Shown here: one piece after another, positions 8,056 to 39,386 of the stretch
How positions within the stretch are numbered: position 1 is the stretch's first letter
How the letters are laid out: each line of letters starts with the position of its first letter
Source: a bacterium
Lineage (GTDB): Bacteria > JACRDZ01 > JAQUKH01
NCBI GenBank assembly: GCA_028719205.1
Contig: JAQUKH010000018.1
Span: 1-51,065 of the forward strand
Length of the DNA: 51,065 nt
Reading direction: 5' to 3'
Translations under genes and position numbers: made by a program
Notes under the pieces: generated by a model
Database searches by the model: none
What the model was told of the DNA's origin: nothing
The model's input: the letters and a program-made list of their open reading frames with translations, nothing else

Positions 8056-8171
8056 GATAAGTATTATTTTATTCTACTTTTAAAATTTATAGCACATTAT
8101 CCGGACTTATTTACAAGATACGTGAATGGTATTTATTGCATAATTATCACAATTATATTACAATAAATTTT

Positions 8172-12383: not shown

Positions 12384-12393
12384 ACTTTAGATT

Positions 12394-13611: not shown

Positions 13612-13626
13612 AAATTTTCCCCTTAA

Positions 13627-14820: not shown

Positions 14821-14872
14821 TTATTTTGCTCCTCATTTTTTAGATGTTTTTTGGCTTAAGCGACAAAAAAAT

Positions 14873-14901
14873 ATGATAGCATATACGACTATATCTTTCA
14901 A
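14873..14901 (-). promoter_or_regulatory. sigma70 promoter of the aspC-synthase-kinase-regulator operon
   Basis: Minus strand TTGAAA-N17-TATCAT with TG extension. Confidence 0.55.
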
Positions 14902-14959
14902 TAAGAAAATCTAATGCGGATTTATCCCCTTCGGGGATAATAATGAGACGGGGTAAATA

Positions 14960-15289
14960 TTAAATTTTTCTCCCTACCTTATTAAAATGATCTAAAAGCA
15001 CGGTTTTATACTTAATATCTTCTTCAGGAAATACCTGGATGACCTGTTCGCCTTCACTTCCGTTTAACCTGTTGTATTTAATGTAAACAATACATTGCAC
15101 GCAGTCCTTTTCTTTCTCCGCAAAAGTGCCCTGCACTTTACCTTCGCAAAGAGTTCCGGCAACAGCCCAACAGCTATGGCCAAGGTTTTCTTTTGCCGCA
15201 ACACACTCTCCAAGCTCTGAAACCCTGGTACCCTCTTTTTCACGGCCGCAATTCTTGAGTTCCCAGCAATTTATCATTTTATCATCCAT
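14960..15289 (-). CDS. Two-CW domain Cys-rich protein
   Basis: NCWELKNCGRE...C...SCWAVAGTLCEGKVQGTFAEKEKDCVQC. Confidence 0.85.
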   Translation of the reverse strand: MDDKMINCWELKNCGREKEGTRVSELGECVAAKENLGHSCWAVAGTLCEGKVQGTFAEKEKDCVQCIVYIKYNRLNGSEGEQVIQVFPEEDIKYKTVLLDHFNKVGRKI

Positions 15290-15344
15290 TTTCTTTGTTC
15301 CTCTGATTTGATTTTATATTTTTTTAAATTATTGTCAATTATAT

Positions 15345-16364
15345 TTATTTTTTCCTTCCTGTTATCAGGCTTGTTCTGAAATTTGTGTCTTTCCGGGTAA
15401 TTCTGGAAAATCCGGCGTTTTTCAGCCATTGAATTACTTCCGATCCGGTATATGTGTTACCGGACTCTGTTCCTACAAGCATATTTAAAGCAAACAAAGC
15501 GCCGTGGGGCGGGCTTACGCGGTCGTCATCCATAATAAAATCCTGGACTACGATCTGTCCTTTCGGATTTAATACTTTGTAACATTTTTTTATAAGCATT
15601 TCATTTTCTTTCGGAGAATTACTGTGGATCACCGCCGAAAGGAATACAAGGTCAAAACCTTTTGGAAACTCATCGCTATTATAATTTCCTGGAGTTGTAT
15701 TTATTTTATCTGAAAGTTTTTCTTTTTCAACATACATCTTTGTGATCGGAAGGACATTGAGCAGGTCGAACACAGTAGCTTTTATGTCATCTTTTGCCCG
15801 CGCGAACGCCATGGAAAAAACCCCTGAACCGCCCCCGATATCCAGGACACTTTTAACGCCGGTAAGGTCTATCATCGAAATCACGAACGGCGCCTGCCTG
15901 TATCCGCGTTCATGCATAGCCGCAATAAATCCGGTTAAAGAATCACCGTCGCGCTCGTCTATGCTTTGTAATGCCGCGGGCCTTCCGAAACGGACTGATC
16001 TTGTCAGGGTACTCCAGTTATTCCAAAGATGAACAAAGTGCATTAAGCCCTGCATATATTCAGGTCTTCCCTTGACAAGAAAACGCAGTCCCGAAGGTGT
16101 ATTGGAAAATTTACCGTTCTTCTTTTTTAAGAGACCCATCGCGCATAACGCGTTCATTAAACGATCTAAAGCGCGGCTGTCTGCTCCTAATTTTTTCGCT
16201 ACTTCATTCGAGGACCTGGCTTTATCCCCAAGCGCGGTAAAGACATCAAGTTCATAAGCGGTTAAAAATATCCTGCTCTTCTGAAAACTAAGCCCTAATT
16301 CCCTGATATCCTGAGGCAAAAGTTCATTATTATCATTATTATTCGACATAAAAAATCTCCTCAT
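15345..16364 (-). CDS. SAM-dependent O-methyltransferase with N-terminal dimerisation domain (ASMT-like)
   Basis: TAYELDVF winged-helix domain, LDIGGGSG, VFDL, FLSAVIH. Confidence 0.9.
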   Translation of the reverse strand: MRRFFMSNNNDNNELLPQDIRELGLSFQKSRIFLTAYELDVFTALGDKARSSNEVAKKLGADSRALDRLMNALCAMGLLKKKNGKFSNTPSGLRFLVKGRPEYMQGLMHFVHLWNNWSTLTRSVRFGRPAALQSIDERDGDSLTGFIAAMHERGYRQAPFVISMIDLTGVKSVLDIGGGSGVFSMAFARAKDDIKATVFDLLNVLPITKMYVEKEKLSDKINTTPGNYNSDEFPKGFDLVFLSAVIHSNSPKENEMLIKKCYKVLNPKGQIVVQDFIMDDDRVSPPHGALFALNMLVGTESGNTYTGSEVIQWLKNAGFSRITRKDTNFRTSLITGRKK

Positions 16365-17464
16365 TCTTTTCTTTTTCCGGCAATAAATTCTTCATTCATC
16401 TTATACGCCTCATCATCCGTAAATTGTCTTGGCGGATGTTTCATAAAATACGAGGAAGGCGAGTACAAAACTCCGCCAATACCCCTGTTTATCGCCAGCC
16501 CCGCGCACCTGATCGCGTCAATTACCACTCCAGCGGAATTCGGCGAATCTTCCACAGACAATCTCAATTCCAGATTTATCGGCACATCCCCGAATATTCT
16601 TCCTTCAATCCGGATAAAAGCGACTTTATTGTCTTTCTGCCACGGGACATAATCGCTCGGCCCGATATGAATATTCTCAGGCTCCAGTCTTTCAGCCAAA
16701 ACCGACTGCACAGCCTCTGTCTTTGATTTCTTTTTTGAACTAAGCCTTGTTATATTAAGCATATTAAGAAAATCCGTGTTCCCTCCCGTATTTAACTGAT
16801 AGGTCCTGTCTATCTTCACCCCTCTTTTTTTAAAAAGGGAGGCTAAGGTCCTGTGCGTGATAGTCGCGCCAAGCTGGGATTTTATGTCATCGCCTATTAT
16901 CGGTATATTTTTCTTCTTAAATTTTTCCTGCCATTTCGGGTCGCTCGCTATAAAAACAGGCATGTTATTGATAAGCCCCACACCTGCCGAGAGGGCGCAA
17001 TCCGCGTAAAATCTGACCGCGTTCTCAGAACCTACGGGAAGGTAATTTATTAATAACTGGGCACCGGATTCTTTAAGTGTTTTAACTATATCTTTTTTTT
17101 CCGCCTCTTTTGCATTACCTGGAACAAACCTGCATTTTTCATCGTAATTTTTCATATGCTCGGATACGCCGTCAAGTATTTTTCCCATTTGAACAAATAC
17201 TTTTGTTTTCGGAATATCGGGACAAAACTTTTTTGTACAGTTTGGCAGCGCGAATATGGCCTCCGATACATCCCTGCCAACCTTTCTCTTGTCGATATCA
17301 AAAGCAGCTACTACTTCAATATCATAAGGTTTATATCCTCCTATATCCCAGTGCATTAAACCATTAACGTCTTCTTTTTGTTTTGTTTTATAATATTCAA
17401 TACCCTGGATCAGAGAGCTCGCGCAATTGCCGACTCCAGCGATCGCGATCTTGATTTTCTTCAT
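16361..17464 (-). CDS. ino1: myo-Inositol-1-phosphate synthase
   Basis: GVGNCASSL, YLPVGS, GDDIKSQLGAT, YQLNTGGNTDFLNM, DSPNSAG. Confidence 0.95.
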   Translation of the reverse strand: MKKIKIAIAGVGNCASSLIQGIEYYKTKQKEDVNGLMHWDIGGYKPYDIEVVAAFDIDKRKVGRDVSEAIFALPNCTKKFCPDIPKTKVFVQMGKILDGVSEHMKNYDEKCRFVPGNAKEAEKKDIVKTLKESGAQLLINYLPVGSENAVRFYADCALSAGVGLINNMPVFIASDPKWQEKFKKKNIPIIGDDIKSQLGATITHRTLASLFKKRGVKIDRTYQLNTGGNTDFLNMLNITRLSSKKKSKTEAVQSVLAERLEPENIHIGPSDYVPWQKDNKVAFIRIEGRIFGDVPINLELRLSVEDSPNSAGVVIDAIRCAGLAINRGIGGVLYSPSSYFMKHPPRQFTDDEAYKMNEEFIAGKRKE

Positions 17465-17480
17465 AAAAACCTCCTTAGCC

Positions 17481-19244
17481 TTAACCAGTTACTCTCGCCA
17501 GAAAAGACCATAGTGAAAAAGAAACTGCCCGAACAAATTTCGGTACTCTTATATTAAATATAGTTGTGGACCACTCCAATTCATTTGTGTCGCAAATAGT
17601 CGAAACGTTGTAGCTATCCATATTTCTCTTTAAATTCGCGAATGCCTCATTTCTGACTGATTCATCGCTGTATATCAGGATCTTATCAATTTTGGAGCAA
17701 AGTTCAATTGCCTTTAAGATCCTGTTCTCTAATTTCTGGTATTCTTTCTTTGTCACAAGGCCATACCGGAATTTTAACCGGTTCAGCTCAAGGCCAGCCT
17801 CGTAAGAACTCTCAACGATATCATGCCGCGAAAGCCATTTAGTCTCATAATTCAGAATATATTTCCAGCTTGGCTGGAGAAGTGCCTGCCTGTGTTCTTC
17901 CAAGGTCTTATAAAAGATCTTATAACCATACTGGTCGGGATTTTCAAAAACCATTGAACCCGGGTCAATAAACGGCGCCAGCGGCGATATAAACAATGAC
18001 ATCCTTTTTGAGTTCGCGTATTTTGAAAGCAAATAATCACAATATTTTACAGTCTCCCTGATCGATTCCCTTGTTTGTTCCGGAAGGCCGGTCATAAAGA
18101 AAAGATCCAGTCTTTTTACCCCAAGTTCCAAAGCTTGTTCTATCATCTCTTCCGCCTCAACATTCCCAAACGGCCTTCCAAACGCGCGGCGTATTTTTTC
18201 ATCATGCGATTGCAGTGAAAGCTGGATATTGAAATTTGGAACCGCCTCCGAGATCTCCTTCAACTGCTCTTTATCCGGGGGAACAAAAAACTCAAATATT
18301 ATCTGGTTCGTGATCTTCAGTTCCGCGAACTTTTTCATAAGGGCGCGGGTGTATTCCCTGCCGTTCTGGAAGATATCGCCGACAAGAAAGATCGGCCCTT
18401 TAATAAAACGGATCAAAGCCTTTATTTCTTTCCCGACATCTTCAACGGTTTTATAAACGGTTTCTTTCCGGTTGCAGTAATTCTTATAAAACTCCTTAGA
18501 CCCGCCGCAAACTTTGCAGTTGCAGTTGCATCCCCTGCATAAAACAATAACCGCGATAGGATAAGCCACCCAGTTTATGAACGGCAAATACCCGGAAAAA
18601 TCAAAATTTTTTAACGCCTGTAAAAATATATGTTTATAATCAATATTTATGCCTTCTAAACTGTTTGGAACATAACTGAACGGATTAAATAACGCGTTCC
18701 CCGTTCCATCACGCCAGCAAAGATTAGGAATGTGTTCAAGGCTTTCACCATTCTTTAAGGTAATAATAAGTTTTTCCAGAAGCGCCTCTGTCGAATCTCC
18801 CCGGATACAATAATCAACAGAAGGATATTCCATCAGTTCTTTATGGTAATACGTGGCTGATAATCCCCCAAAAACCACTTTGGAATCCGGATGAAAATTT
18901 TTTACAAGTTTCGCCACTTCAATGCTTCCATGCGCGTGCGGAAGCCAGTGAAGGTCGATCCCAAAGAGCCGGCTATCCATCTTTCTTAAAAACTTTTCAA
19001 CATCGAATTTTGGATTATGCAGCATCTTCAACGCGAGATTTACGATCCTCACCCTGAATCCCCTGCTGGTAAGATATCTTGAGATCGTGGTAAATCCGAT
19101 CGGATACATTTCAAAGATCGGAGTTGACGGAACAACATCGCTTATCGGCCCGTACATTATCGAACTCTTACGGAAATCGTATACACTTGGCGCGTGCAGA
19201 AGAACCAGGTCATACTTGTAATTATCTTTTGTTTTTGTTGACAT
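17481..19244 (-). CDS. B12-binding domain radical SAM protein, probably Ta0216/TIGR04190 family
   Basis: LHAPSVYDFR, GPISDVVPSTPIFEMYPIGF, GIDLHWLPHAHG, RGCNCNCKVC, SPLAPFIDPGS. Confidence 0.85.
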   Translation of the reverse strand: MSTKTKDNYKYDLVLLHAPSVYDFRKSSIMYGPISDVVPSTPIFEMYPIGFTTISRYLTSRGFRVRIVNLALKMLHNPKFDVEKFLRKMDSRLFGIDLHWLPHAHGSIEVAKLVKNFHPDSKVVFGGLSATYYHKELMEYPSVDYCIRGDSTEALLEKLIITLKNGESLEHIPNLCWRDGTGNALFNPFSYVPNSLEGINIDYKHIFLQALKNFDFSGYLPFINWVAYPIAVIVLCRGCNCNCKVCGGSKEFYKNYCNRKETVYKTVEDVGKEIKALIRFIKGPIFLVGDIFQNGREYTRALMKKFAELKITNQIIFEFFVPPDKEQLKEISEAVPNFNIQLSLQSHDEKIRRAFGRPFGNVEAEEMIEQALELGVKRLDLFFMTGLPEQTRESIRETVKYCDYLLSKYANSKRMSLFISPLAPFIDPGSMVFENPDQYGYKIFYKTLEEHRQALLQPSWKYILNYETKWLSRHDIVESSYEAGLELNRLKFRYGLVTKKEYQKLENRILKAIELCSKIDKILIYSDESVRNEAFANLKRNMDSYNVSTICDTNELEWSTTIFNIRVPKFVRAVSFSLWSFLARVTG

Positions 19245-19269
19245 TTTATCTCTCCAAAAAATGATAAAT

Positions 19270-19330
19270 GTAGGGGCGAACCTATGTGTTCGCCCGTATT
19301 AAAAGGGCAGACACATGGGTCTGCCCCTAC
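19270..19330. repeat. Inverted doublet of GTAG-type REP palindromes
   Basis: GTAGGGGCGAACCTATGTGTTCGCCC (+) and GTAGGGGCAGACCCATGTGTCTGCCC (-). The second supplies the TAG stop of the upstream gene. Confidence 0.85.
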
Positions 19331-19971
19331 GGCGCCGGAAAATAAACAAAAAATACATCCCAAGCTATATGCGTGATAACAGCCGGCCAGAAACCTGACT
19401 TAAAATAGATCCAGCCCCAGATAAACGCCAAAGAAAAATCTACTAATCCGGAAACGGGCCCAAGGGTGCAGGCCCTGGCACCGCTTATAATAGAGGCCAG
19501 AAGTATCGCGGTCTTATTGTCAAAATATAGATTAAATATATTTTGAACGTATACCCGATAGAACATTTCAACCGCTATAACGATCATAATTACACCGGAA
19601 ACAGACACGAAAATATTTATCTCATGCCAGGGGCGCACAAAATACTGCCAGAGATCAAGATCCACCAAACCCTGAAGCTTCGGGATCCTGCCGACCGCGG
19701 AAAAAGAAATCCGCATTAATAAATATAGAAAAAGCATAAGAGATACCCCCAAGGCCAAATATCTGGTTTTTACTTTTTTATCCGTTTTATTTTTTATATT
19801 TACATCAAATCCTTTCCCTAAAAAATATCCCGCGGTTAACATACAGGCAAAATACGCCATATTCCCATACGGCCTCATTCCCGGCAACGTATAAATAAGA
19901 TAATACAAACCCGCAACCGGAATATTTACCAAACACATTATTATTAAATCTTTTTTGCTTATCATATCCAT
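19327..19971 (-). CDS. CPBP (CAAX protease/Abi) family membrane protein with degenerate motifs
   Basis: Multi-TM; VEMFYR (EExxxR variant), WGWIY..SG, ITHIAWD. Confidence 0.7.
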   Translation of the reverse strand: MDMISKKDLIIMCLVNIPVAGLYYLIYTLPGMRPYGNMAYFACMLTAGYFLGKGFDVNIKNKTDKKVKTRYLALGVSLMLFLYLLMRISFSAVGRIPKLQGLVDLDLWQYFVRPWHEINIFVSVSGVIMIVIAVEMFYRVYVQNIFNLYFDNKTAILLASIISGARACTLGPVSGLVDFSLAFIWGWIYFKSGFWPAVITHIAWDVFFVYFPAP

Positions 19972-19990
19972 GCTCTATGCTCCATGTTTT

Positions 19991-21199
19991 TTAATAATAC
20001 CCGACTTCTTTCATCAGCTGTCCGACAACCTCTTTATATTCTTTATTAGCTTTTTTATATTCCTCAACGGATTCGTCAAGCTTTCCATCGGTTTGTTTTA
20101 TTTCAGCAAGGCCGTGATGAGTATAAGCTTTGTTTGGATTTACTTCAGAAACATTCGCGTTTACACCCAGCACCTTTTGTTTTTCTGAACCCATATAAAG
20201 ATCTAAAGCCTTTGTAAAACTTTCTACCGCTTTGACCTTGTCATTATTTTTTAAATATGTCACTCCTAAACCATAATAAGCGTCCGCTGACGCGGGAATA
20301 TTCTGGATAACAATGTTAAATTCTTTAATTGCCTCAGCGAGCCTATTCCCATCCTTGCACGCGATCGCGTAATTATAATGAGCTGACATATTACTTGAAT
20401 CGAGGTCTAACGCAGCAAGAAAATAATTGGTCGCTTTATCAAGCTCATCTTTTTTGGAATAAAAAATCCCTAATAATATATTCGCATCCGCGTATGTCGA
20501 ATCTTCTTTCAGCGCGGTTTCTAATTTCGGAAGCGCCTGGCTGATCAAACCCTTTTTGTAAAATTGCAATGCCATATTGTAATAAAATCCCGCTTTCCCT
20601 TTTGGCTGATATCCTTCCGGCGCCTTTTTAACAACCTGTTCTATTCCAAGGGCTGTTTCTATTGACCGGCGGACGATCCTCTCCCCCGAAAGATCGGGAA
20701 AACCCGGGATCAAAGCGGAAACTAAACCTTCTTTATCAATTATAATAAGGCTTGGAATTGTTACAACCCCGAATTTTTCATAAACCGCTAATCCTTTATC
20801 CACTAAAACAGGATATGAGATCTTGGCATCGACTGTCACACCCAATGCCTCGTCTAACTCACTGTCAGGAATTCCCTCCTGGCCGCGCGGGCTATAGACT
20901 GAAAGCACTTCCAGTCCTTTTTCTGAATGATATTTGTCATACATTTTCTGCAAATATCCCAATTCAGCGGCTGAACGCAGGTTTGGATTTGACCAGAAAA
21001 TAACAGCTACCGCTGATTTACCTTTATAACTGTCAATACTGTATTCTTTCCCCTGCATATCCTTAAGCGTAAAACTCACCATCGGATCATTTTCCTTTAA
21101 CCGTTTAAATGCCTGGCCGTTTGCCGGAACAAAAAACAGCAGAAAAAGAAATGTCATCAATAAAGTTACTAAGGTAATCTTGTTAATTTTCGTTTTCAT
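19991..21199 (-). CDS. Exported redoxin (AhpC/TSA-like fold, no CxxC) plus TPR-repeat protein
   Basis: Signal peptide, FTLKDMQGKEYSIDSYKGK, FGVVTIPSLIIIDKEG, then TPR repeats. ATG 21199 has a G-rich RBS. Confidence 0.8.
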   Translation of the reverse strand: MKTKINKITLVTLLMTFLFLLFFVPANGQAFKRLKENDPMVSFTLKDMQGKEYSIDSYKGKSAVAVIFWSNPNLRSAAELGYLQKMYDKYHSEKGLEVLSVYSPRGQEGIPDSELDEALGVTVDAKISYPVLVDKGLAVYEKFGVVTIPSLIIIDKEGLVSALIPGFPDLSGERIVRRSIETALGIEQVVKKAPEGYQPKGKAGFYYNMALQFYKKGLISQALPKLETALKEDSTYADANILLGIFYSKKDELDKATNYFLAALDLDSSNMSAHYNYAIACKDGNRLAEAIKEFNIVIQNIPASADAYYGLGVTYLKNNDKVKAVESFTKALDLYMGSEKQKVLGVNANVSEVNPNKAYTHHGLAEIKQTDGKLDESVEEYKKANKEYKEVVGQLMKEVGYY

Positions 21200-21230
21200 T
21201 TCAACCCCCCCCAAATTAAATTTTATTTTC

Positions 21231-21259
21231 TTGAACCTCACACTATATAATGTTAAAAT
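21231..21259 (+). promoter_or_regulatory. sigma70 promoter predicting a leaderless U32 mRNA
   Basis: TTGAAC-N17-TAAAAT with TG extension; ATG starts 7 nt after the -10 box; no SD. Confidence 0.55.
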
Positions 21260-21265
21260 ATTTTT

Positions 21266-22354
21266 ATGAGATTATCAATTCCCACTAACTGGGACAATAA
21301 GCTTATCGAAAACCTTTCAAGCCTTCCTATACACAACTACTATGCGAAATTACAGGAAGATGTCGTCGGCGGCGGAAGGCCGGCCGCAAGCATTCCTCAT
21401 GTAACACGGCAAAAAGTTAAAGAACACATCAAACTGATCCACGAGAACAAGGCATTATTTAACTATGTTCTCAATGCCCCCTGCCTCGGAAATACTGAGT
21501 ATTCGCCCTCCTATCGTAAACAGATCTTTCAGCTTCTTGACTGGCTTACTTTAATAGGAGTTGATTCCGTAACCGTTACCATTCCACTCCTGCTCGAATG
21601 GATCAAGAAAAATTTCCCGTCTTTAAAAGTAAGTGTCTCTGTTTTTTCTCACGTTGATACTATAAACATGGCAAAAATGTACGAAAACCTCGGAGCGGAT
21701 GAAATTACCATTACCCAGCAATTCAACCGCGATTTTAATTTTTTAAAGAGCCTTCGAAAAAACTGCAAAACTGATTTTCAGCTGATCGTAAACAACGCGT
21801 GCCTTTTCGGATGCCCTTTCCGAAGATACCATTCAAATCTGAACGCTCATTCATCACAAATCGGCGCGAAAAAACTGCCGCTGGATTATCCTGTAATGCG
21901 GTGCACGCTTCTTCGTTTCAAATATCCTTCTGAAATAATCCGCTCTCCCTGGGTCAGGCCTGAAGACCTTGTTTATTATGAAAAGATCGGAATAGATAAA
22001 TTTAAATTATCAGGCCGAACCAATACCACTGAATGGATCACCAAAACCGCGAAGGCGTACGCCGGCCGAAAAAGCCCGAAAAACTTCGCGGAACTTCTGG
22101 CCGTTCCGAATGCCGCCGGTTCCATGTTCAGAAAAACTATTCCGGGAGCGCCGGATGTCAATCTGGTTATTGATAACGATACCCTTCCAGGATTCATAAA
22201 ACATTTCCTTAATAAAAGTTGTTCCTCTCTTTCCTGCGATAAATGCCTCTACTGCGACCGGATAGCTTTAAAGAGCGTAAAGACATCCAAAGAACTTTCT
22301 AAAAAACTTATTTCAGCCTACGAAAAAGTATTATCTGATTTCCAGAACATTTAA
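21266..22354 (+). CDS. U32 family protein (Fe-S hydroxylase-like)
   Basis: GGGR, FNYVLNAPC, NNACLFGCP, WVRPEDL, FKLSGR, C-terminal CSSLSCDKCLYC. Confidence 0.85.
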   Translation: MRLSIPTNWDNKLIENLSSLPIHNYYAKLQEDVVGGGRPAASIPHVTRQKVKEHIKLIHENKALFNYVLNAPCLGNTEYSPSYRKQIFQLLDWLTLIGVDSVTVTIPLLLEWIKKNFPSLKVSVSVFSHVDTINMAKMYENLGADEITITQQFNRDFNFLKSLRKNCKTDFQLIVNNACLFGCPFRRYHSNLNAHSSQIGAKKLPLDYPVMRCTLLRFKYPSEIIRSPWVRPEDLVYYEKIGIDKFKLSGRTNTTEWITKTAKAYAGRKSPKNFAELLAVPNAAGSMFRKTIPGAPDVNLVIDNDTLPGFIKHFLNKSCSSLSCDKCLYCDRIALKSVKTSKELSKKLISAYEKVLSDFQNI

Positions 22355-23004
22355 TAAACCGCTAAATCTTTAACCTTATCCAAACGTTTTCTAAATTCGC
22401 GAATTATATTAACAAAATCATTTATTTCACAATTCGCGCCTACTTTTACCCCTCTGACAAAATCCCTGGGAACCAGTTCTTCCAGGGGAAGATTTTCATA
22501 TTCCTGATCACCGTCAAAGAAAATATCAATCCCTAATTTCGGTGAAACTTTTAGATTTTCAAGAGCCTTCAGCCCCAGCCATGGAACTATAATTCTATCC
22601 GCGCCCATACACCGGGCAAAATTGGCATCACGGTTCGATTGGATCCCGCAAACCACTGAAGCTATTATTTCAATATTACTGTCGGGAAAGTTATCCGACA
22701 CCCAGGATATCAGGCGATAATCCCCAAGCACCAGGCCATCCGGCTGATATGGAATAACATCTTTAATAGCCTGCAATATATCATCATATTGATTATCGGC
22801 CAATTTAGCGTTAAATACCACATACGCTTTTTTTTGATATTTATGCGCGTATTCTATCGCAGAGCTTACCTCTTCTTTTGAAAAAATAACACCGTGATAA
22901 CTTATGGTCACTAATCCCTGAACAGGAATATAAACGGAATCGGCGCCATTTTGTATTGCCGACTTAAGAAATTCCCAATTTGGTGTTGGTACCATTAATT
23001 CCAT
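22351..23004 (-). CDS. Short U32 family protein (N-terminal part only)
   Basis: MELMVP, AIQNGADSVY, AIEYAHKYQKKAYVVFN, DGLVLGD; no Cys cluster. Confidence 0.75.
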   Translation of the reverse strand: MELMVPTPNWEFLKSAIQNGADSVYIPVQGLVTISYHGVIFSKEEVSSAIEYAHKYQKKAYVVFNAKLADNQYDDILQAIKDVIPYQPDGLVLGDYRLISWVSDNFPDSNIEIIASVVCGIQSNRDANFARCMGADRIIVPWLGLKALENLKVSPKLGIDIFFDGDQEYENLPLEELVPRDFVRGVKVGANCEINDFVNIIREFRKRLDKVKDLAVY

Positions 23005-23028
23005 TTGATCCGCCTCCTAAGTGCTTCA

Positions 23029-24060
23029 CTAATCTATTTCAGAAAATTCCAACGCGACAGTCTTATTTATCTCTGCCGACTTATAAGCCGCTGACATGCA
23101 CATCGCGTTAATGATCGCCTCATCGATTCCGTCAGGCGAAAAATCCTTATTTTTTAATCTGCTGTAAAATTTATTAAAAAGTCCCAGATACCAGTCAGAA
23201 TGACTTGAATCAGAGGACATACCCTCATTCAAAATTATTTTCTCTTTTTTCCCGAAAGTATTTAATACAATTTCATTTTCTGTCACGGAAATATCACCAT
23301 CTGTTCCTAATATCTTAAAGATCGTTTCCTTCTCCTTACCCGCCCATGTCAAAGCGAACTGAGCTATACCTTTTTCATATTTAATATTTATCCATGCCGT
23401 ATCTTCCACCGTATATTCGAAATGGTAAAGTCTTTCTGTCTGCGCGGTAATATGCTTCGGTACCCCTAATATTGAAGACGCGAGATAAAAAAGATGCGAA
23501 CCATGATCAACAATAATGCCTCCCCCGCTATTCTCGATTTCACTCCGCCATACCGGATTCCACGCGTCATTGCCTTTATTTATCCCGGTACGGTACACAA
23601 AAAACTGCATAAGAAAAGGTTTTCCTATCAACCCTCTGTTTATAATAAAATCCACTTTTTGCCATACTGGAGAATAACGGTACTGATGCCCCGGTAAAAA
23701 CACCAGATTGCTTTTCGCCAGTTTCTCTTTTATCCGTAAAAGAGATTCAAAATTTATATCAACCGGTTTTTCGCATATTATATTTATTTTCTTTTCCACC
23801 GCGCGCGCTATAATTTCAAAATGGCTCAATGGCGGCGTACAAATATCAACAAAATCAAGTTTTTCATTTGTTAACAGTTCGTTAATATCGGAATACGCGT
23901 TGCTTTGGGGTGACATTTTTTTAAATTTTTCGATATTTTCCCCAACACAATCGCATCCGGCAACAATTTGAAATTTTTTCATCATATCCGGATTAAGATA
24001 TGCCTTCAAATGGCCGTTTAAACCTATGTTTCCTAAACCAATAATTGCTCCGCGATACAC
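23029..24060 (-). CDS. Gfo/Idh/MocA family oxidoreductase (inositol dehydrogenase-like)
   Basis: IIGLGNIG, DICTPPLSH, ICEKP, GGGIIVDHGSH. Confidence 0.9.
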   Translation of the reverse strand: MYRGAIIGLGNIGLNGHLKAYLNPDMMKKFQIVAGCDCVGENIEKFKKMSPQSNAYSDINELLTNEKLDFVDICTPPLSHFEIIARAVEKKINIICEKPVDINFESLLRIKEKLAKSNLVFLPGHQYRYSPVWQKVDFIINRGLIGKPFLMQFFVYRTGINKGNDAWNPVWRSEIENSGGGIIVDHGSHLFYLASSILGVPKHITAQTERLYHFEYTVEDTAWINIKYEKGIAQFALTWAGKEKETIFKILGTDGDISVTENEIVLNTFGKKEKIILNEGMSSDSSHSDWYLGLFNKFYSRLKNKDFSPDGIDEAIINAMCMSAAYKSAEINKTVALEFSEID

Positions 24061-24887
24061 GGTTCTTCCTCCTTCATAGTGTTACCGCTGTTAAGATAAA
24101 TATCTATAAATTTTTTCGCTAATATTGAGGCCCTTTTTGGAAATTCATTATGTTTATTTAATTCAACTGAAAGCCACCCGTTATAATTTATTTTTTCCAA
24201 ATATTCAAAAAATTGGTCAAAATCAATATCCCCTTGTCCGGGTATCAAATGACGGTGCGGAAAATCTTTACGAAAAACATCATCCACATGTATCACCTGT
24301 AAATAATTTTTTAACTTGTCAATATACGCGGGAACCTCTTCTCCGACACCAAAACAATGCCCTATATCAACCAGCGCGCGAAAGGTATCTTTTCCCAGCC
24401 TATTGATAGCTTCCACAACCTGTTCGGGACGGGAAAGCCATTTTTCCGGTTCCGCTTCCAGGGCTACGATAATATTTCTCTTGCGCGCCTCTTCCCCGAT
24501 CATATCCATGGCCTGATAAAAATATTCTCCCTGCTTTTTAAAACTTAGCTCATTTTCAGGATATAATCCGCCTGAGGCCGTGTGCACTGCACCGACTCCA
24601 AAAAATTCCGCCATACGGATACAGCCTAAAAACTTTTCAATGTTCTCTTTTCTTTTCTCCGGTTCAGGCGCGACAAAATCCAAATGCGCGCTTATACCGT
24701 AAACCTCAAGTCCCAGCTTGTAAATAATTCTTTTTATGTCACGTAAGCGCATTTCTGAATCACGGGAAGATATATGATTTCCCTTCGCCCAAAGTTCAAC
24801 TCCTTTATATCCCTGTCCGGCAATCGAGTTTAAGGCGTATTCAATCGGGAAATTCCGGTAAGCATTAAGAAAAAATCCTAATTTCAT
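24033..24887 (-). CDS. Sugar phosphate isomerase/epimerase (xylose-isomerase-like TIM barrel; IolE/IolI-like)
   Basis: GYKGVEL, ALEAEP, DIGH, IHVDD, HLIPGQGDIDF, WLSVEL metal ligands. Confidence 0.9.
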   Translation of the reverse strand: MKLGFFLNAYRNFPIEYALNSIAGQGYKGVELWAKGNHISSRDSEMRLRDIKRIIYKLGLEVYGISAHLDFVAPEPEKRKENIEKFLGCIRMAEFFGVGAVHTASGGLYPENELSFKKQGEYFYQAMDMIGEEARKRNIIVALEAEPEKWLSRPEQVVEAINRLGKDTFRALVDIGHCFGVGEEVPAYIDKLKNYLQVIHVDDVFRKDFPHRHLIPGQGDIDFDQFFEYLEKINYNGWLSVELNKHNEFPKRASILAKKFIDIYLNSGNTMKEEEPCIAEQLLV

Positions 24888-24930
24888 TTTAATTCTCCTA
24901 TTTACTTTAACTCCTGAGGGAGCCCTCTTT

Positions 24931-25845
24931 TTATCTAATTATCAAATCTGATAAAGTAATGAATAAAAACCCTGTTGCTGTTAACGCGTTTATCAAGAAA
25001 AAAGTTTTATTTGTCCTTAGTATCTCAGTTTTTTGTGTAGCAATATGACCATATATCACCAAAACACCTAAGGTTAAAATCCCAATAAAATAAATATTCC
25101 TGAAACTATATATTTTTGCCAAATATAAAAGAAGAGAAATACTTATAATATGAAGGCCAAAGGCTATTATCTGGCTTTTTTTCTCACCCAGCAGCTCCGG
25201 TATCGAATGAAGCCCATGCGTCCTGTAAAATTCTATATCTTCACGGTCATAAATAATATCAAATCCGCTTGTCCAGAAAAACACTGCCAGCCCCATAACC
25301 ATAGCGGAAAGGTTCCATTCTCCTTTAACAGCTATCCATCCCCCGACAGGCGCCCAGAATAATATTGCCCCGAGTAAAAAATGGTTCAACCAGGTCCATC
25401 TCTTGGCTGATGAATAAACAAGAATAAGCGCGATTGGAATTGGAGAAAGATACAAACAAAGCGGATTCAACATCCATGCGCTTAAAATAAATAAGACCAA
25501 AGAAAACACCGTAAAAATTATTACTTCATTATCCCTGATAACCCCTTTTACTAACGCTCTTTCCTTAGTCCTCGGATTTTTTCCATCAATGTCTTTATCC
25601 AGCAAACGGTTAACCGCCATTCCCGCGTTCCGTGCGGAAACAACCGCCAGAATGATCCAGAATATATTCGTTATAGAAGGTATCAACCTCCCATTTATGC
25701 TATATTGGGCAAGTGCTGCCCCCGCCAAAGCAAAAGGCAAAGTAAAGATCACAAAAGGAAATAGTGTAAGCTCAGAATAAATACGAATCTTTTCTCTAAA
25801 ACTTTTGGCTTGTAACTTATGACTTGTGACTTTACTTGAATCCAT
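24931..25845 (-). CDS. ubiA: UbiA family prenyltransferase (MqnP-like)
   Basis: NRLLDKDIDGKNPRTKER, YSSAKRWT, GFDIIY; ATG 25845 with GAGGTGG RBS. Confidence 0.85.
   Translation of the reverse strand: MDSSKVTSHKLQAKSFREKIRIYSELTLFPFVIFTLPFALAGAALAQYSINGRLIPSITNIFWIILAVVSARNAGMAVNRLLDKDIDGKNPRTKERALVKGVIRDNEVIIFTVFSLVLFILSAWMLNPLCLYLSPIPIALILVYSSAKRWTWLNHFLLGAILFWAPVGGWIAVKGEWNLSAMVMGLAVFFWTSGFDIIYDREDIEFYRTHGLHSIPELLGEKKSQIIAFGLHIISISLLLYLAKIYSFRNIYFIGILTLGVLVIYGHIATQKTEILRTNKTFFLINALTATGFLFITLSDLIIR
25808..25832 (-). repeat. Heptamer tandem repeat within the 5' end of ubiA
   Basis: AAGTCAC-AAGTCAT-AAGTTAC-AAGC, encoding KVTSHKLQ; same unit as 40758-40872. Confidence 0.6.
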
Positions 25846-27280
25846 ATTCTTTCCACCTCTTTTCAACAAGTTCAATTATCTCTTTCTTCTGAGAAATCTT
25901 TTCCGGCCACTGCCTTCCGTCCAATTCTTTCGGGAATTTCCGCGTGGCGTCAATACCGATCTTGGACCCAAAGCCTTCCTTTAAACTGGAAAAATCCAAT
26001 ATATCCGCAGGCCCCTTCGCGGTAACAATATCCCGCTCCGGATCAATATTATTCCCAAGGTTCCATAAAACGTCACTGATAGAACTGATATTAATATCAT
26101 CATCCACAATAATTATAATTTTGGAAAACATCATCTGGCCGAGGCCCCAAACCGCGTGCATTATTTTATGCGCCTGCCAGGCATAAGTTTTTTTGATGCT
26201 GAAGATCACAATGTTATGAAAACCTCCCTCTAATGGAAGATTCATATCAACTATTTCAGGAATAGTTAATTTCACAAGCGGAAGAAAAATCCGCTCAGTC
26301 GCCTTTCCTAAAAAATTATCTTCAACAGGGGGAATACCAGTAGATACAGTATGATAGATAGGGTCTTTTCTGTGTGTAATACAAGTCAGATGAAATACCG
26401 GAAACTTATCAGGTAAAGAATAATGCCCCGTATGATCTCCAAACGGGCCTTCCACCCGTCGCTCGCCGGGCTCAATATAACCTTCCAGGATTATCTCGCT
26501 GTTAGCCGGAACCTCAAGGTCGATTGTCTTGCATTTGACGAGTTCAACCGGCTCCCCTTTTAAAAATCCGGCAAAAATAAATTCATCTATATCGGGGGGG
26601 AGGGGCGCTGTGGCGGCATAGGTAGTGGCCGTATCTGACCCAACCGCCACAGCCACCGCTAATCTCCTCCCCAATTTCTCCGCTTTTTGAAAATGCCTTG
26701 CTCCGTCTTTATGCGGATGCCAATGCATACCGCACGTTTGCCCGTCAAAAACCTGCATCCTGTACATCCCGACATTTCTTACGTTCGTCTCCGGGTCTCT
26801 CGTAATAACCAGCGGCAAGGTAATATATTTTCCGCCATCCTTCGGATAATACTTCAATATCGGAAATTCATCCAGAGAAAAATAATTTTTTGTTACGATT
26901 TCCTGGCAAACCCCGTTATTTACATCTTTAGGTTTGAACGACCTGAAGGTTTTATATAATTTTGGAATGGAACGTACCTTACCAAAAAAAGAATCCGGCA
27001 TCTTCGGTTTAATAATTTCTTCAATTCTTTTCGCGATATCATCCAGTTTTTCCACACCTAACGCATGAGACATCTTCTCTAAACTTCCGAACGTGTTGAT
27101 TAAAACAGGATATTTAGATCCTGATACATTTTCAAAAAGAAGCGCCGGCCCGTTTGAACGCGTAACGCGATTTGATATCTCAGCGATCTCTAACTCGCTG
27201 TTAACCGGAATTTTTACCCTTAAAAGCCCGCCCGTCGCTTCTAACGATTTAATATATTCCCTAAGATCTTTGTAAGCCAT
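25832..27280 (-). CDS. ubiD: UbiD family prFMN-dependent decarboxylase (menaquinone MqnL-like)
   Basis: MAYKDLREYI, GPALLFENV, RNVGMYRMQ, EGPFGDHTGHY, IIIIVDDDI, KIGIDAT. Confidence 0.92.
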   Translation of the reverse strand: MAYKDLREYIKSLEATGGLLRVKIPVNSELEIAEISNRVTRSNGPALLFENVSGSKYPVLINTFGSLEKMSHALGVEKLDDIAKRIEEIIKPKMPDSFFGKVRSIPKLYKTFRSFKPKDVNNGVCQEIVTKNYFSLDEFPILKYYPKDGGKYITLPLVITRDPETNVRNVGMYRMQVFDGQTCGMHWHPHKDGARHFQKAEKLGRRLAVAVAVGSDTATTYAATAPLPPDIDEFIFAGFLKGEPVELVKCKTIDLEVPANSEIILEGYIEPGERRVEGPFGDHTGHYSLPDKFPVFHLTCITHRKDPIYHTVSTGIPPVEDNFLGKATERIFLPLVKLTIPEIVDMNLPLEGGFHNIVIFSIKKTYAWQAHKIMHAVWGLGQMMFSKIIIIVDDDINISSISDVLWNLGNNIDPERDIVTAKGPADILDFSSLKEGFGSKIGIDATRKFPKELDGRQWPEKISQKKEIIELVEKRWKEYGFK

Positions 27281-27331
27281 AATTCTTTCTCCTGCTTTAT
27301 ATACGTAACAACTCCTAATAAAAAATCCCTT

Positions 27332-28831
27332 TTAAACGAGATGACATAAATTACAGGCAAACCCTTTCCGAATCCTTTTGGTTTTTGAAGCCTTTTCACC
27401 TTCAAAATGCGGGTCATGACAGGTAGTACATGTAATCTCTCCGTTTGTATCCAGAGGGAATCCTTTTGGTACGATCATTGTTGGTTTTACAACATGGGAA
27501 AACGCGGCCGGATGCGGCCTGTGCGAATGGCACCTGATACAAAGCATCTTGATCTTTCCTCCCTTAATACCCTTATCGCTATCTTCATCGTTTTTATCTC
27601 CGGTATCCGGTGGTGTAATATGACAATACATGCATTTCCGTTTTGCCTTCATTTCAAAATGAGGATTCAATTTCTTAAATTCCTCTTTGTCGTGACACAT
27701 AAAACACAGATCATTAATTTCCTTATTCCTTCCGCCTTCTTCAAATCCCCGAAGTAAGTAAATGCTGGTCCTGTTAACAAATCCAGCGCTATGACATGTA
27801 TTACAAGTGATCTTACCCTTCTGCAGCGGAAGAGCCGGATCAACCTTCATTTCCGGCGGAGGCAGGATATCTACAGGATGCATATTCGCTTCTGTCCCAT
27901 GGCAACTATTACAAAGAAGTGTAAAATTTCCTCCAAACCTAAAATCAACTTCATCTACAGTAGCGCCTTCCTTCGGCATAGTAATATGACAAACTAAACA
28001 TTGGGTATCATCAAAATGGGGTTTAACATATCTTCCCTCTTCCAGGCTATAAATATATTCCGGCCTTAGGAAATGGGCAGTAGCTGATGCCCCATGCGGA
28101 TCATGACAAGTCGCGCAAGTTATATTTCCATCGGCATCGCGGGGTAGGCTAGGCGGAGGAGATATAGTAGTATCTACATTCATAGGATGATTTTGCGCGG
28201 ACATATTATGACAAAAGTTACACAAGGTCAGAATATTAATTCTAAAGCCGACTGTCTTTTCATTATCACTTATTTTGGGTTCAGTGGCGTGACAGTAATT
28301 ACATTTACGCTTCCCTTCCAAAATGCGATGCGGGTTCTTTTTAAGGAATTCCATTCCATGGCAGTCGTAACACAGATCTGTCCGCCACTTATATTTGCCC
28401 TCTTCAAAACCACGGAGCAGGCTGAACTTTGTATCTTTCGCGTGCATATTATGGCAGGTTATACAGTTAACCTTTTTTTCCTTGCTTAAAGGAAGATTCG
28501 CCGGAACTTTCATAGAAGGATCCACACCTGTAGGATGAATATTACTCTCTGCCCCATGGCATTCCACGCAAAGCTCTTCAATAGGTTTTTTGAATGTTAC
28601 AGTTTCTTTTGTATCTTCCTTACCGGGTTTAATTTTATGGCAATCTGTACAGTCCAATTCATTATGCGGATTCGGTCTGCCTTTTTTCTTCGCGAATTCC
28701 TCAAGAGCTTTAGATTCATCTTGCGAGGCGGAAAACGCGGGATATCCTATAAATAATGATACCGATAATAAGAAAATAACACAAATTTTATAGTTTTCTG
28801 TTGAATTAGAAGTTTTAAAATCATTTTTCAT
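27332..28831 (-). CDS. Exported 15-heme cytochrome c
   Basis: Signal peptide and 15 CxxCH motifs counted in 499 aa. Confidence 0.93.
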   Translation of the reverse strand: MKNDFKTSNSTENYKICVIFLLSVSLFIGYPAFSASQDESKALEEFAKKKGRPNPHNELDCTDCHKIKPGKEDTKETVTFKKPIEELCVECHGAESNIHPTGVDPSMKVPANLPLSKEKKVNCITCHNMHAKDTKFSLLRGFEEGKYKWRTDLCYDCHGMEFLKKNPHRILEGKRKCNYCHATEPKISDNEKTVGFRINILTLCNFCHNMSAQNHPMNVDTTISPPPSLPRDADGNITCATCHDPHGASATAHFLRPEYIYSLEEGRYVKPHFDDTQCLVCHITMPKEGATVDEVDFRFGGNFTLLCNSCHGTEANMHPVDILPPPEMKVDPALPLQKGKITCNTCHSAGFVNRTSIYLLRGFEEGGRNKEINDLCFMCHDKEEFKKLNPHFEMKAKRKCMYCHITPPDTGDKNDEDSDKGIKGGKIKMLCIRCHSHRPHPAAFSHVVKPTMIVPKGFPLDTNGEITCTTCHDPHFEGEKASKTKRIRKGFACNLCHLV

Positions 28832-28857: not shown

Positions 28858-28874
28858 TGCAATTTTCATACCAA
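28858..28874 (-). promoter_or_regulatory. sigma54 (-24/-12) promoter of the cytochrome-ubiD-ubiA operon
   Basis: Minus strand TTGGTATGAAAATTGCA (GG-N10-GC), 26 nt upstream of the ATG. Confidence 0.8.
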
Positions 28875-28972: not shown

Positions 28973-29026
28973 TGTCATAATGACACATATTTAATAAATA
29001 TATTTTCGCAATTTGTCATTTTGACA
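28973..29026. promoter_or_regulatory. Pair of palindromic enhancer-like (UAS) sites
   Basis: TGTCATAATGACA (28973-28985) and TGTCATTTTGACA (29014-29026), 41 bp apart, 100-155 bp upstream of the -24 element. Confidence 0.7.
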
Positions 29027-34983: not shown

Positions 34984-35026
34984 ATTTATTAAAATTTGAT
35001 TTTAATCTTAGAAGGAGGATAAAAAA

Positions 35027-35629: not shown

Positions 35630-35653
35630 TCATAAAAAACTAAAGGAAAAAAA

Positions 35654-37238: not shown

Positions 37239-37539
37239 GATCGCTTTTATCGGCGAACAGCCGTCAATATTGGGATTTAAAGCTATCGGCGCGGATATTT
37301 TCCCGGCTGCAGATGGAAACGAAGCCGTCAATATGCTTGAAAATATGTTTAAAGAAGATTATAAAATAATCTATATTACTGAAAATATTGCAGGCCAGAT
37401 CACAGATTATTTAAAGGGTATAGACAGATTGTGGCCGATAATTACGATCATCCCGGGCTTTAAAGGAAGTAAAGGATTGGGTAAGGCTAGGCTTAGAAAT
37501 TATATTATTAAAGCAACCGGAACGGATATGATAAGTTAA
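37231..37539 (+). CDS. atpF: V/A-type ATPase subunit F
   Basis: KIAFIGE..ILGFKAIG, IYITE, IKATGTD. Confidence 0.88.
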   Translation: MSKIAFIGEQPSILGFKAIGADIFPAADGNEAVNMLENMFKEDYKIIYITENIAGQITDYLKGIDRLWPIITIIPGFKGSKGLGKARLRNYIIKATGTDMIS

Positions 37540-39385: not shown

Positions 39386-39386
39386 A

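Follow-up and report, generated by a model that had tools for sequence, protein, structure and literature searches.

At positions 15345-28831 of a bacterial contig (JAQUKH010000018.1 of assembly GCA_028719205.1), genes for a 15-haem cytochrome, a UbiD-type decarboxylase, a UbiA-type prenyltransferase, sugar- or cyclitol-type enzymes, two U32 proteins, an inositol phosphate synthase and a methyltransferase follow one another with gaps or overlaps of at most 82 nt (calculated from the gene coordinates). This raises the question of whether they encode one pathway, a part of one, or an ordinary pair of menaquinone genes with unrelated neighbours. The redox span available to a respiratory chain is set by its isoprenoid quinones. 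Prenylation of aromatic acids is the task of UbiA-type enzymes, and their decarboxylation, via prenylated flavin mononucleotide (prFMN), that of UbiD-type enzymes. An initial annotation, made from the letters of the window alone (the window being the whole stretch analysed, 51,065 nt), had proposed that the entire run makes a prenylated, hydroxylated and methylated redox carrier, or a cyclitol-bearing lipid, that works with the cytochrome. We found that a UbiA/UbiD-centred system with U32 proteins and a methyltransferase is real and conserved, and that it plausibly makes a carrier of this kind, but that the 13.5 kb as a whole do not make up a single system. Our best explanation, which we consider fairly probable, is that the window carries the form taken in one lineage by a conserved accessory O2-independent system for a second ring-modified isoprenoid quinone, or for a close quinone-like prenylated aromatic. 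Literature searches, mostly of open papers without their supplements, returned no published description of this system.

The genome of the window (G000, an assembly of 2.59 Mb in 68 contigs, 92.7% complete) was compared with five others of its phylum (G001-G005) and with 20 genomes of a second phylum, that of G006, which lies outside the six; the genome-wide co-occurrence counts cover these 26 genomes. G004 and G005 belong to the same genus as the window, G002 to another family and G003 to a third family of the same phylum. Open reading frames (ORFs) and domains of the window proteins were assigned by Pfam and NCBIfam profile scans. The window copies of the two prenyl-aromatic genes are called UbiD2 and UbiA2, the 362-aa and 217-aa U32 proteins U32L and U32s, the PF01261 protein TIM, and the Gfo/Idh/MocA oxidoreductase Gfo.

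UbiD2 and UbiA2 are second copies beside a housekeeping futalosine cluster

The initial annotation had proposed to look for a second, housekeeping mqnL/mqnP pair, and this is present in G000, where a cluster mqnL-mqnP-mqnE-PF02621-mqnC occupies C3:121900-127419 on another contig. The same cluster was also found in G001, G002 and G004 of the window's phylum and in G022, G023 and G024 of the second phylum. As the initial annotation had correctly stated, neither ubiX nor mqnA-E lies in the window; the mqn genes are on contig C3, the single UbiX of the genome is on contig C8 and its single UbiE on contig C2.

The window and C3 copies share 53% identity for UbiD and 38% for UbiA. The C3 UbiD scores 649.9 bits with TIGR03701, which UbiD2 also passes (Table 1), so this model fails to separate the two paralogues. 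UbiA2 lies under the MqnP cut-offs NF041584 (213.9 vs 420), NF041585 (193.9 vs 375) and NF041586 (216.6 vs 430). In a tree of all copies, the operon-type UbiD proteins of both phyla form one clade (support 99/97), as do the operon-type UbiA proteins (86/84, and 92/92 with E. coli UbiA added), in each case apart from the housekeeping clades. The phylogeny that had been suggested as a check thus unites the operon-type copies of two phyla.

In the region C3:115307-127419 (locus L110), the futalosine cluster has a single PF02621 (MqnA/MqnD family) gene, as do those of G001, G002 and G005; the futalosine pathway requires both MqnA and MqnD activities. About 5 kb upstream of the futalosine cluster on C3 lie a 349-aa UbiU/TrhP-like U32 gene and a gene for a 269-aa partner of no known family.

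A core gene set is co-inherited in two phyla

Conserved association in other taxa had been named as the point to check, and the second phylum provides it. G022 and G023 carry a colinear operon, ubiD-ubiA-TIM-Gfo-U32 (~300 aa)-U32-like (~257-300 aa)-U32L-UbiE, and G024 has the same order plus a 100-aa ORF on the opposite strand between ubiA and TIM. The CPBP gene follows UbiE in G023 and G024, and the G022 contig stops at UbiE. G025 has a partial copy of the operon, and in G006 the set is split over at least four contigs. A TIM orthologue is present in five of the 20 second-phylum genomes, at 51-53% identity.

In the window's phylum, G004 fully keeps the order from ubiD to the methyltransferase gene. 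Its contig ends inside the cytochrome gene, whose N-terminus begins another contig, followed by the same divergent B12-binding radical S-adenosylmethionine (SAM) gene and radical SAM gene as in the window; past the cytochrome gene, gene order is not the same even in G000 and G004. In G002, the arrangement is ubiD-ubiA-TIM-Gfo / U32L / CPBP-ino1, with the contig ending inside ino1 and the methyltransferase gene beside the other half of ino1; the short U32 gene, the thioredoxin-fold/TPR gene and the B12-binding radical SAM gene are absent from this cluster, where the last of them is missing between CPBP and ino1. G003 has U32L / ubiD-ubiA-CPBP, and TIM, the kinase sensor domain and the methyltransferase were not found in this genome. 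In G001, ubiD2, CPBP-UbiE-ubiA2, TIM-Gfo, U32L, the methyltransferase gene and the kinase/regulator pair lie on separate contigs. No operon parts were found in G005 (92% complete), which has the housekeeping pair only.

Among the 26 genomes, TIM is carried by nine. A homologue of the window methyltransferase is present in all nine, even where it is unlinked, as well as in G021, and in none of the 16 others, which is why we assign this enzyme to the system; its nearest solved relatives are DsyB, RedM, SibL and DnrK-type enzymes. The CPBP gene adjoins operon-type ubiA, ubiD or U32L in G001, G002, G003, G004, G006, G023 and G024. In G000 itself, TIM, Gfo, U32L, CPBP, ino1 and the methyltransferase gene are each single-copy. 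The operon UbiE of second-phylum locus L153 scores 235.3 with NF001244 (cut-off 216) and 236.6 with TIGR01934 (cut-off 158.35), and that of L143 passes both with 225.8 and 234.2; the operon UbiE of G001 matches MpqE best, at 263 bits, under the cut-off of 335.

In summary, the conserved core comprises UbiD2, UbiA2, TIM, the Gfo/Idh/MocA oxidoreductase, one to three U32 proteins, the CPBP protein and the family-2 methyltransferase, which form a co-inherited set, and in other lineages the set also includes a UbiE-type C-methyltransferase. The 13-kb run is not one unit, and only part of it belongs to the conserved system.

Two further features were seen in the second phylum. The sigma54 promoter and ubiD have between them a small conserved hydrophobic ORF (~37-47 aa, ending ...LGQ-ADK-x-Y-x-G-R; ~5085-5200 in L152, ~6810-6950 in L153, and also in L154); a motif scan of G000 and 10 related loci did not find it. 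A third quinone-like cluster is present in G023 (contig C127, locus L157, ~5773-16449), with an MqnP-like UbiA, U32 proteins of 380 and 419 aa, two MqnE/CofH-like radical SAM proteins and unassigned genes, and a similar trio occurs in G021 (L159). G021 and G023-G025 have one to three MqnC/E-like matches (295-321 bits) beyond the housekeeping pair, and non-carriers are without them.

A kinase, a sigma54 activator and a palindrome are shared with the second phylum

A sigma54 element, TGGTATGAAAATTGCA, lies at 28873-28858 on the minus strand, 42 nt before the start of the cytochrome gene. G004 has a near-identical element before its cytochrome gene and a further one, TGGCATAAAAATTGCA, before ubiD. 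In the window, two TGTCA-N3-TGACA palindromes lie at 28973 and 29014, 41 bp apart and 100-155 nt upstream of the sigma54 element. This palindrome occurs four times in the whole 2.59 Mb of G000 (about three expected), and two of the four occurrences are at this promoter. In G004 it also stands upstream of both sigma54 elements, that of ubiD and that of the cytochrome gene, and in G023 and G024 upstream of that of the operon; over 38 loci (374 kb), all six matches fall at these promoters. The exact palindrome was found at none of the scattered G001 or G006 loci. The second-phylum promoters were missed by the strict sigma54 pattern and were located by eye and with a GG-N10-GC scan.

A PAS histidine kinase and a sigma54 activator are encoded directly upstream of the second-phylum operon. 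The initial annotation had overlooked a dedicated pair of this kind at 9505-12383, outside its range of 15345-28831. The window activator (9505-10863) is 51% identical over its full length to L153:5146-6600, its best phmmer partners being in L152 and L153, and the sensor domain of the window kinase is 39% identical to that of the kinase upstream of the second-phylum operon. This sensor domain was found in nine of the 26 genomes, that is, in eight of the nine TIM carriers and in G021, and in none of G003, G005 and G007-G020. By these comparisons, the kinase/regulator pair is the orthologue of the second-phylum pair and part of the system, and the palindromes are candidate binding sites of the sigma54 activator. 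The system is thus predicted to be under the control of a dedicated sensor kinase and sigma54 activator, via the palindrome and a -24/-12 promoter. The shared circuit would tie the operon together and, in this genus, the cytochrome as well.

U32L is a candidate hydroxylase and U32s a degenerate remnant

Five of the six genomes of the window's phylum have an orthologue of U32L, its gene running against the operon there, and the second-phylum operon has one too (49-85% identity). Across 33 homologues, C179, C183, C213, C324, C327 and C330 are invariant. The spacing of these cysteines (C179-x3-C183, C213 and the C-terminal C324/C327/C330) is unlike the motif CX6CX15CX3/4C, which recurs in U32 Fe-S proteins according to the available part of PMC6747719. 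Fe-S binding by U32L is nevertheless plausible from its cysteines, though without the canonical motif. As described in the accessible sections of PMC6747719 and PMC10990095, U32 proteins are known O2-independent ring hydroxylases, most U32 subfamilies are uncharacterised, and UbiU and UbiV are U32 Fe-S proteins needed to hydroxylate the ring without O2, prephenate donating the oxygen. By analogy, U32L is a candidate O2-independent hydroxylase.

U32s matches only the N-terminal half of PF01136 (Pfam gathering score 22.4), UbiU (61.9 bits) and TrhP, and it lacks, through an internal deletion, the Cys-rich segment seen in its ~300-aa second-phylum orthologues. It is absent in G002 and G003. It is a degenerate remnant of the first U32 gene of the operon, and the second U32-like gene has been lost. 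The U32 pair of the window had been likened to UbiU and UbiV, an equation that does not stand, given a degenerate U32s and scores that are nil or far below the UbiU cut-off of 440.

More distant relatives of U32L, at 80 metagenome loci (L017-L096), lie in same-strand radical SAM arrays. A scan of 42 neighbouring genes identified 31 as radical SAM genes (22 with a B12 domain), seven as a second U32 paralogue and two as ABBA prenyltransferases (PTase_Orf2, PF11468).

TIM and Gfo form a constant pair

TIM is the sharpest marker of the system, with 38 clusters at E<=1e-30 among 5.8 billion. The metagenome-assembled genome (MAG) labels of these clusters are Desantisbacteria, Poribacteria and Firestonebacteria, with one Hydrothermarchaeales. 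Its predicted model (pLDDT, the predicted local distance difference test score, 90.1) has fold matches at 14-22% identity to Art22, D-tagatose 3-epimerases, IolE, IolI, AsbF and YcjR. The Gfo gene always adjoins that of TIM, including an isolated pair in G001, and the nearest solved relatives of Gfo are the TM0312-type protein 1zh8 and the C-glycoside 3-oxidase DgpA. The labels IolG-like and IolE/IolI-like, given initially to Gfo and TIM, reflect weak matches: Gfo scores 79.5 with IolG against a cut-off of 355 (82.3 for the second-phylum Gfo), and TIM 38.8 with IolE against 290. Searches against solved structures, by fold and sequence for TIM and by sequence for other genes, gave generic superfamily matches only.

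Other genes of the run look like genus-level additions or neighbours

The B12-binding radical SAM protein, the thioredoxin-fold/TPR protein, ino1 and the cytochrome look like local additions or neighbours of the conserved core. The cytochrome had first been taken to work with the product of the cluster, but its adjacency to ubiD was seen only in this genus, where G004 has it at the same position with its own sigma54 promoter and palindrome. An 85%-identical paralogue lies at C21:44109-45596 (locus L182) in a different gene context, and more paralogues (25-32% identity) are found on C1, C21, C31 and C42. The cytochrome looks like a recent duplicate, a genus-level addition that is probably co-regulated with the operon. 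The L182 copy adjoins genes for a 699-aa TPR-containing protein and a small cytochrome.

Two other proteins that had been counted as members of the cluster, the thioredoxin-fold/TPR protein and the B12-binding radical SAM protein, were found there only in this genus. The thioredoxin-fold/TPR gene is in the cluster in G004 and not in G002 or G003, and it has paralogues (30-37% identity) on C1, C36 and C42. Its earlier description as a redoxin is right for the AhpC/redoxin fold but not for the active site, as its 416 residues include a single cysteine, which is not at the WCxxC position, and no CxxC (ResA 52.7 vs 170). As a candidate TlpA/ResA-type thiol-disulfide oxidoreductase it was rejected on the CxxC criterion. 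The B12-binding radical SAM gene is likewise in the cluster in G004. G000 holds three paralogues above the cut-off of TIGR04190, the other two in unrelated contexts, and at least 20 matches to the B12-binding radical SAM model; TIGR04190 is passed in 0/14 control genomes. No solved relative was found at E<=0.001, and the window protein is a candidate C-methylase.

Ino1 had also been drawn into the pathway. It scores 457.7 with TIGR03450 (cut-off 638) and belongs to the general Ino1 family rather than to the mycothiol-type equivalog. In the second phylum, full-length homologues are present in 14 genomes and a fragment in one more (15/20), at 59-76% identity (59-70% in carriers, 71-76% in non-carriers). 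Nine of the 14 second-phylum genomes without any operon part have ino1, and a tenth has the fragment. The gene is linked to the operon in G000, G004 and G002 only, and is unlinked in seven of ten carriers. It is probably a housekeeping neighbour and not a component of the system.

Features of the window and neighbouring genes

Both the list of ORFs and the profile scans agree with the initial annotation on the 12 genes of the run, the 15 haem motifs and the sigma54 promoter. These features are listed in Table 1 together with the regulatory pair and palindromes.

Table 1. Genes and regulatory elements of the system and of the run in which it lies (window positions; scores in bits).
Feature	Position	Strand	Evidence
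15-haem periplasmic c-type cytochrome	27332-28831	-	15 CXXCH motifs and a signal-like N-terminus
UbiD2, prFMN-type decarboxylase, MqnL paralogue	25832-27280	-	TIGR03701 596.8 vs cut-off 495.9
UbiA2, aromatic-acid polyprenyltransferase, MqnP paralogue	24931-25875	-	TIGR01475 247.3 vs 180.8
TIM, xylose-isomerase-like TIM barrel	24033-24887	-	PF01261; keto-sugar isomerase/epimerase/dehydratase superfamily
Gfo/Idh/MocA NAD(P) oxidoreductase, sugar or cyclitol type	23029-24060	-	Pfam/NCBIfam scans
U32s, 217-aa U32 fragment	22351-23004	-	PF01136 29.8
U32L, 362-aa Cys-rich U32	21266-22354	+	PF01136 40.3; no NCBIfam match
Secreted AhpC/redoxin (thioredoxin) fold and TPR protein	19991-21241	-	Pfam
CPBP/Rce1-like polytopic membrane protein	19327-19971	-	PF02517
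B12-binding radical SAM protein	17481-19244	-	TIGR04190 672.4 vs cut-off 500
Ino1, inositol-3-phosphate synthase	16361-17464	-	PF01658 128.6 vs 27
Family-2 SAM methyltransferase	15345-16364	-	PF00891 and dimerisation domain
Histidine kinase, ~270-aa multi-helix membrane sensor domain	10860-12383	-	Pfam
Sigma54-dependent response regulator	9505-10863	-	Pfam: receiver, AAA+ and HTH_8
Sigma54 -24/-12 promoter element	28858-28873	-	GG-N10-GC
Two TGTCA-N3-TGACA palindromes	28973-29026	.	candidate sites of the sigma54 activator

The tight co-directional run on the minus strand extends onward to 9505. A strong sigma70-like site at 15338-15311, the best of the region (11/12 matches), points to the start of another transcription unit behind the methyltransferase gene. 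Terminator-like sites occur at chance level (22 found, 19.7 expected). Behind the sigma70-like promoter follows a gene for a two-CW domain protein (14960-15289, minus strand; NF045718 74.7 bits), with three paralogues elsewhere in G000. Between the operon and the kinase, at 12394-14820 on the minus strand, lie a homocitrate/isopropylmalate-synthase-like gene (TIGR02660 422 bits vs 462.9) and an aspartate-aminotransferase-like gene, and the trio of synthase, kinase and regulator is kept in G004. On the plus strand, three more radical SAM genes flank the system at 29079-31282 and 8136-9515, two of them B12-binding and one PA0069-like; the two genes at 29079-31282 are divergent from the cytochrome gene in G004 too. 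Further on, a V/A-type ATPase operon (subunits I, c, E, C/AC39, A and B; 33013-40757, plus strand) lies downstream of an M23 peptidase gene.

A proposed pathway and its alternatives

How could the conserved set act? The families suggest that UbiA2 would prenylate an aromatic carboxylic acid and that UbiD2 would remove the carboxyl group with prFMN from the single UbiX. The Cys-rich U32 protein may then add one or more ring hydroxyls by prephenate-dependent, O2-independent chemistry of the kind proposed for UbiU/UbiV, and the family-2 methyltransferase and UbiE (here perhaps the B12-binding radical SAM protein) would methylate O and C positions. The Gfo/TIM pair would carry out keto-sugar or keto-cyclitol chemistry and would most plausibly supply or trim the ring precursor, for example by a dehydroshikimate-dehydratase-like route to dihydroxybenzoate. 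Since UbiD needs a carboxylated ring, our guess is that a route from a cyclitol acid fits better than one from inositol. The head group may be benzoquinone-like or a modified naphthoquinone. This genus would have gained the co-regulated 15-haem cytochrome, a possible redox partner, together with the thioredoxin-fold/TPR and B12-binding radical SAM proteins, beside ino1, and two of the three U32 genes are missing or degenerate. The quinone character of the product is supported by UbiD2, which exceeds the MqnL cut-off, by the operon UbiE, which exceeds that of NF001244 and in G001 is closest to MpqE, and by the B12-binding radical SAM methyltransferase encoded beside the methyl-plastoquinone genes of Leptospirillum (PMC11874023).

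Several points weigh against an accessory quinone system. The co-occurrence counts represent few independent events, with the second-phylum carriers probably forming one clade, and the absence of the system from G005 could be a single deletion or an assembly gap. Some copies are disrupted (U32L is split in G002 and has one TAA in G003, and TIM has one TAA in G023), which may reflect MAG errors or decay. The substrate of UbiA2 and UbiD2 does not appear to be readable from sequence, all of the MqnP exception models being below cut-off, and E. coli UbiA, with a branch length of 4.9, is too distant to polarise the UbiA tree. The different cysteine pattern of U32L makes hydroxylase chemistry an extrapolation, and its broader family (33-43% identity) occurs in B12-radical-SAM arrays without ubiA or ubiD, with a UbiA match at one of the 80 metagenome loci. 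The fold search with the TIM model does not discriminate between epimerases, isomerases and dehydratases, and the role given above to TIM and Gfo is a guess. The window cluster, moreover, has no UbiE.

Within this explanation, the core set may tailor menaquinone, a sub-case that we regard as a real but minority possibility. UbiA2 and UbiD2 would then take 1,4-dihydroxy-6-naphthoate (or its hydroxylated derivative) made by the housekeeping futalosine genes, and the U32 protein and the methyltransferases would give a hydroxy-, methoxy- or methyl-menaquinone. Consistent with this, UbiD2 scores above the cut-off of the MqnL equivalog, the operon-type clades lie amid MqnL/MqnP-like sequences and not with E. 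coli UbiA, and futalosine genes are also present in eight of the nine TIM carriers. However, G006 carries the set, and neither a PF02621 protein nor MqnC/MqnE nor MenD was found above cut-off in this genome of unstated completeness, which hints at independence from a naphthoate supply. Late tailoring would, in addition, need no separate prenyltransferase and decarboxylase paralogues, and the operon UbiE of G001 resembles the benzoquinone-type MpqE most closely, if below cut-off.

A bolder form of the accessory quinone explanation is put forward tentatively, as we think it rather doubtful. Candidate phyla of strict anaerobes (Desantisbacteria, Firestonebacteria and Poribacteria by their MAG labels, and one more phylum) would have independently assembled a fully O2-independent pathway to a ring-oxygenated, methylated, benzoquinone-type quinone of higher potential. 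The pathway would combine duplicated MqnP/MqnL with a new branch of U32 Fe-S hydroxylases, draw its ring acid through Gfo/TIM from a cyclitol acid of the shikimate pathway, be switched by the kinase and sigma54 activator and, in this genus, be wired to the 15-haem cytochrome.

A role outside respiration is unlikely; in that case the set would either yield a prenylated aromatic that serves as signal, antioxidant, envelope lipid or secondary metabolite, or break down an aromatic glycoside, with Gfo/TIM as a 3-keto-sugar eliminase or C-glycoside lyase. DgpA is among the best solved relatives of Gfo, YcjR, a keto-glucal hydratase and similar proteins are among the fold matches of TIM, and the two ABBA prenyltransferases among the 42 scanned neighbours of distant U32L relatives would also suit such a product. 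On the other side, the operon UbiE passes a quinone C-methyltransferase cut-off, an MqnL-type UbiD and a polyprenyl-type UbiA are enzymes of membrane quinones, and the conserved set contains no transporter, glycosidase or catabolic genes.

More unlikely still is the inositol route, in which all 13.5 kb would be one pathway, and Ino1, Gfo as IolG and TIM as IolE/IolI would convert glucose-6-phosphate to an inosose-derived polyhydroxybenzene or cyclitol head group that is prenylated and works with the cytochrome. The adjacency of ino1 to the operon in three genomes is in keeping with it, as are the presence of ino1 somewhere in all ten genomes with the TIM/UbiA2 set, the rank of IolG as the top NCBIfam match of Gfo, and IolI and IolE among the sequence and fold matches of TIM. 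The frequency of ino1 in non-carriers, its lack of linkage in most carriers and the low Iol scores all argue against this route, as does the presence of the B12-binding radical SAM and thioredoxin-fold/TPR genes in the cluster only in this genus. Moreover, an inositol-derived ring has no carboxyl group and would leave the conserved UbiD2 without a role. The conversion of inosose to a polyhydroxybenzene, for which no specific support was found, would make UbiD unnecessary and is as improbable as the route built on it. Finally, the conservative view of ordinary futalosine mqnL/mqnP with unrelated genes merely close by is very improbable: UbiD2 passes TIGR03701, the best UbiA2 matches include MqnP models and short gaps alone are no proof of common function, but the housekeeping pair stands on C3 with mqnE, PF02621 and mqnC, and the single-copy TIM, Gfo, U32L and CPBP genes travel with the paralogues in two phyla and are apparently co-regulated.

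If the accessory system does make a quinone, this compact set of 9-10 genes would be a new quinone pathway, would give a functional context to an uncharacterised U32 branch, a tiny TIM-barrel family and a CPBP protein, and would offer a testable case of quinone diversity arising through duplication of the late futalosine steps. The available text of PMC11874023 ties ring-oxygenated quinones of higher potential to Pseudomonadota, Cyanobacteriota and aerobic Nitrospirota at present, and U32-based O2-free quinone hydroxylation is regarded as a trait of Pseudomonadota in the part of PMC11707229 available. Should the benzoquinone form hold, a ubiquinone- or plastoquinone-like compound would have been invented beyond the three lineages now credited with high-potential quinones, and the system would contain a candidate O2-free C1 hydroxylase.

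Comparison with known systems

The ebo (eustigmatophyte/bacterial operon) cluster, to which the run had been compared initially, is alike in having a UbiA-family enzyme beside a TIM barrel with a cyclitol synthase nearby. The analogy goes no further: EboC scores 36.8 bits against a cut-off of 250, the window UbiA is of the aromatic-acid (MqnP/4-hydroxybenzoate) type, and no other Ebo family, EboA, B, D and F included, was among the Pfam/NCBIfam matches of the cluster genes.

The Gfo/TIM pair has counterparts in IolG/IolE-IolI, DgpA/DgpBC and YcjS/YcjR, and AsbF is a TIM-barrel dehydroshikimate dehydratase. The pairing is the same, a ketone-making NAD(P) dehydrogenase beside a metal-dependent TIM barrel that isomerises, epimerises, dehydrates or eliminates, but the window TIM has the low identity to its fold matches given above and clears no family cut-off. 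Quinone pathways are not known to include a Gfo/TIM pair.

The methyl-plastoquinone (mPQ) pathway of aerobic Nitrospirota comprises MpqA, C, D/X, Q and E, and in Leptospirillum a B12-binding radical SAM methyltransferase gene neighbours mpqA, mpqC and mpqE (PMC11874023). The two systems share a UbiA/UbiD benzoquinone route related to MqnP/MqnL, a UbiE-like MpqE and a neighbouring B12-binding radical SAM gene. Here, however, MpqE is under its cut-off, and MpqC/UbiC and MpqQ are absent; the carriers of the window system were sampled from anoxic settings, and the presence of U32 proteins in them points to hydroxylation without O2, hydroxylation being the step that is left unresolved for mPQ.

The O2-independent ubiquinone pathway of Pseudomonadota uses UbiA, UbiD/X, UbiU-UbiV-UbiT, UbiG and UbiE (PMC6747719, PMC10990095 and PMC11707229, each as far as accessible). 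The logic is common to both, with prenylation, decarboxylation, U32 proteins in place of O2-dependent hydroxylases, and O- and C-methylation, and the first U32 of the second-phylum operon matches UbiU and TrhP over its N-terminal two thirds (77-99 bits). The components are not orthologous: UbiU scores are 61.9-77 bits against 440, U32L has no NCBIfam match and a different Cys motif, the window methyltransferase is of the PF00891 type and not UbiG, the hosts are outside Pseudomonadota, and control is predicted to be by sigma54 and a two-component pair, not FNR. SCP2/UbiT was not seen in the operon, and no genome-wide search for it was made.

MqnP, MqnL, MqnM/UbiX and UbiE/MenG are the predicted late steps of the futalosine pathway (Ravcheev and Thiele 2016, PMC4746308, in the portion available). 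The window system shares with these steps the UbiA and UbiD subfamilies (TIGR01475, TIGR03701), a UbiE that stands in the operon outside this lineage, and one UbiX per genome in G000. It differs in that its UbiA and UbiD genes are second copies beside an intact housekeeping cluster, with a clade and dedicated sigma54 control of their own, and in that TIM, Gfo, U32, CPBP and the family-2 methyltransferase are foreign to the futalosine pathway. By these likenesses, the system would best be described as the late futalosine steps fused to a tailoring like that of O2-independent ubiquinone synthesis, while belonging to neither pathway.

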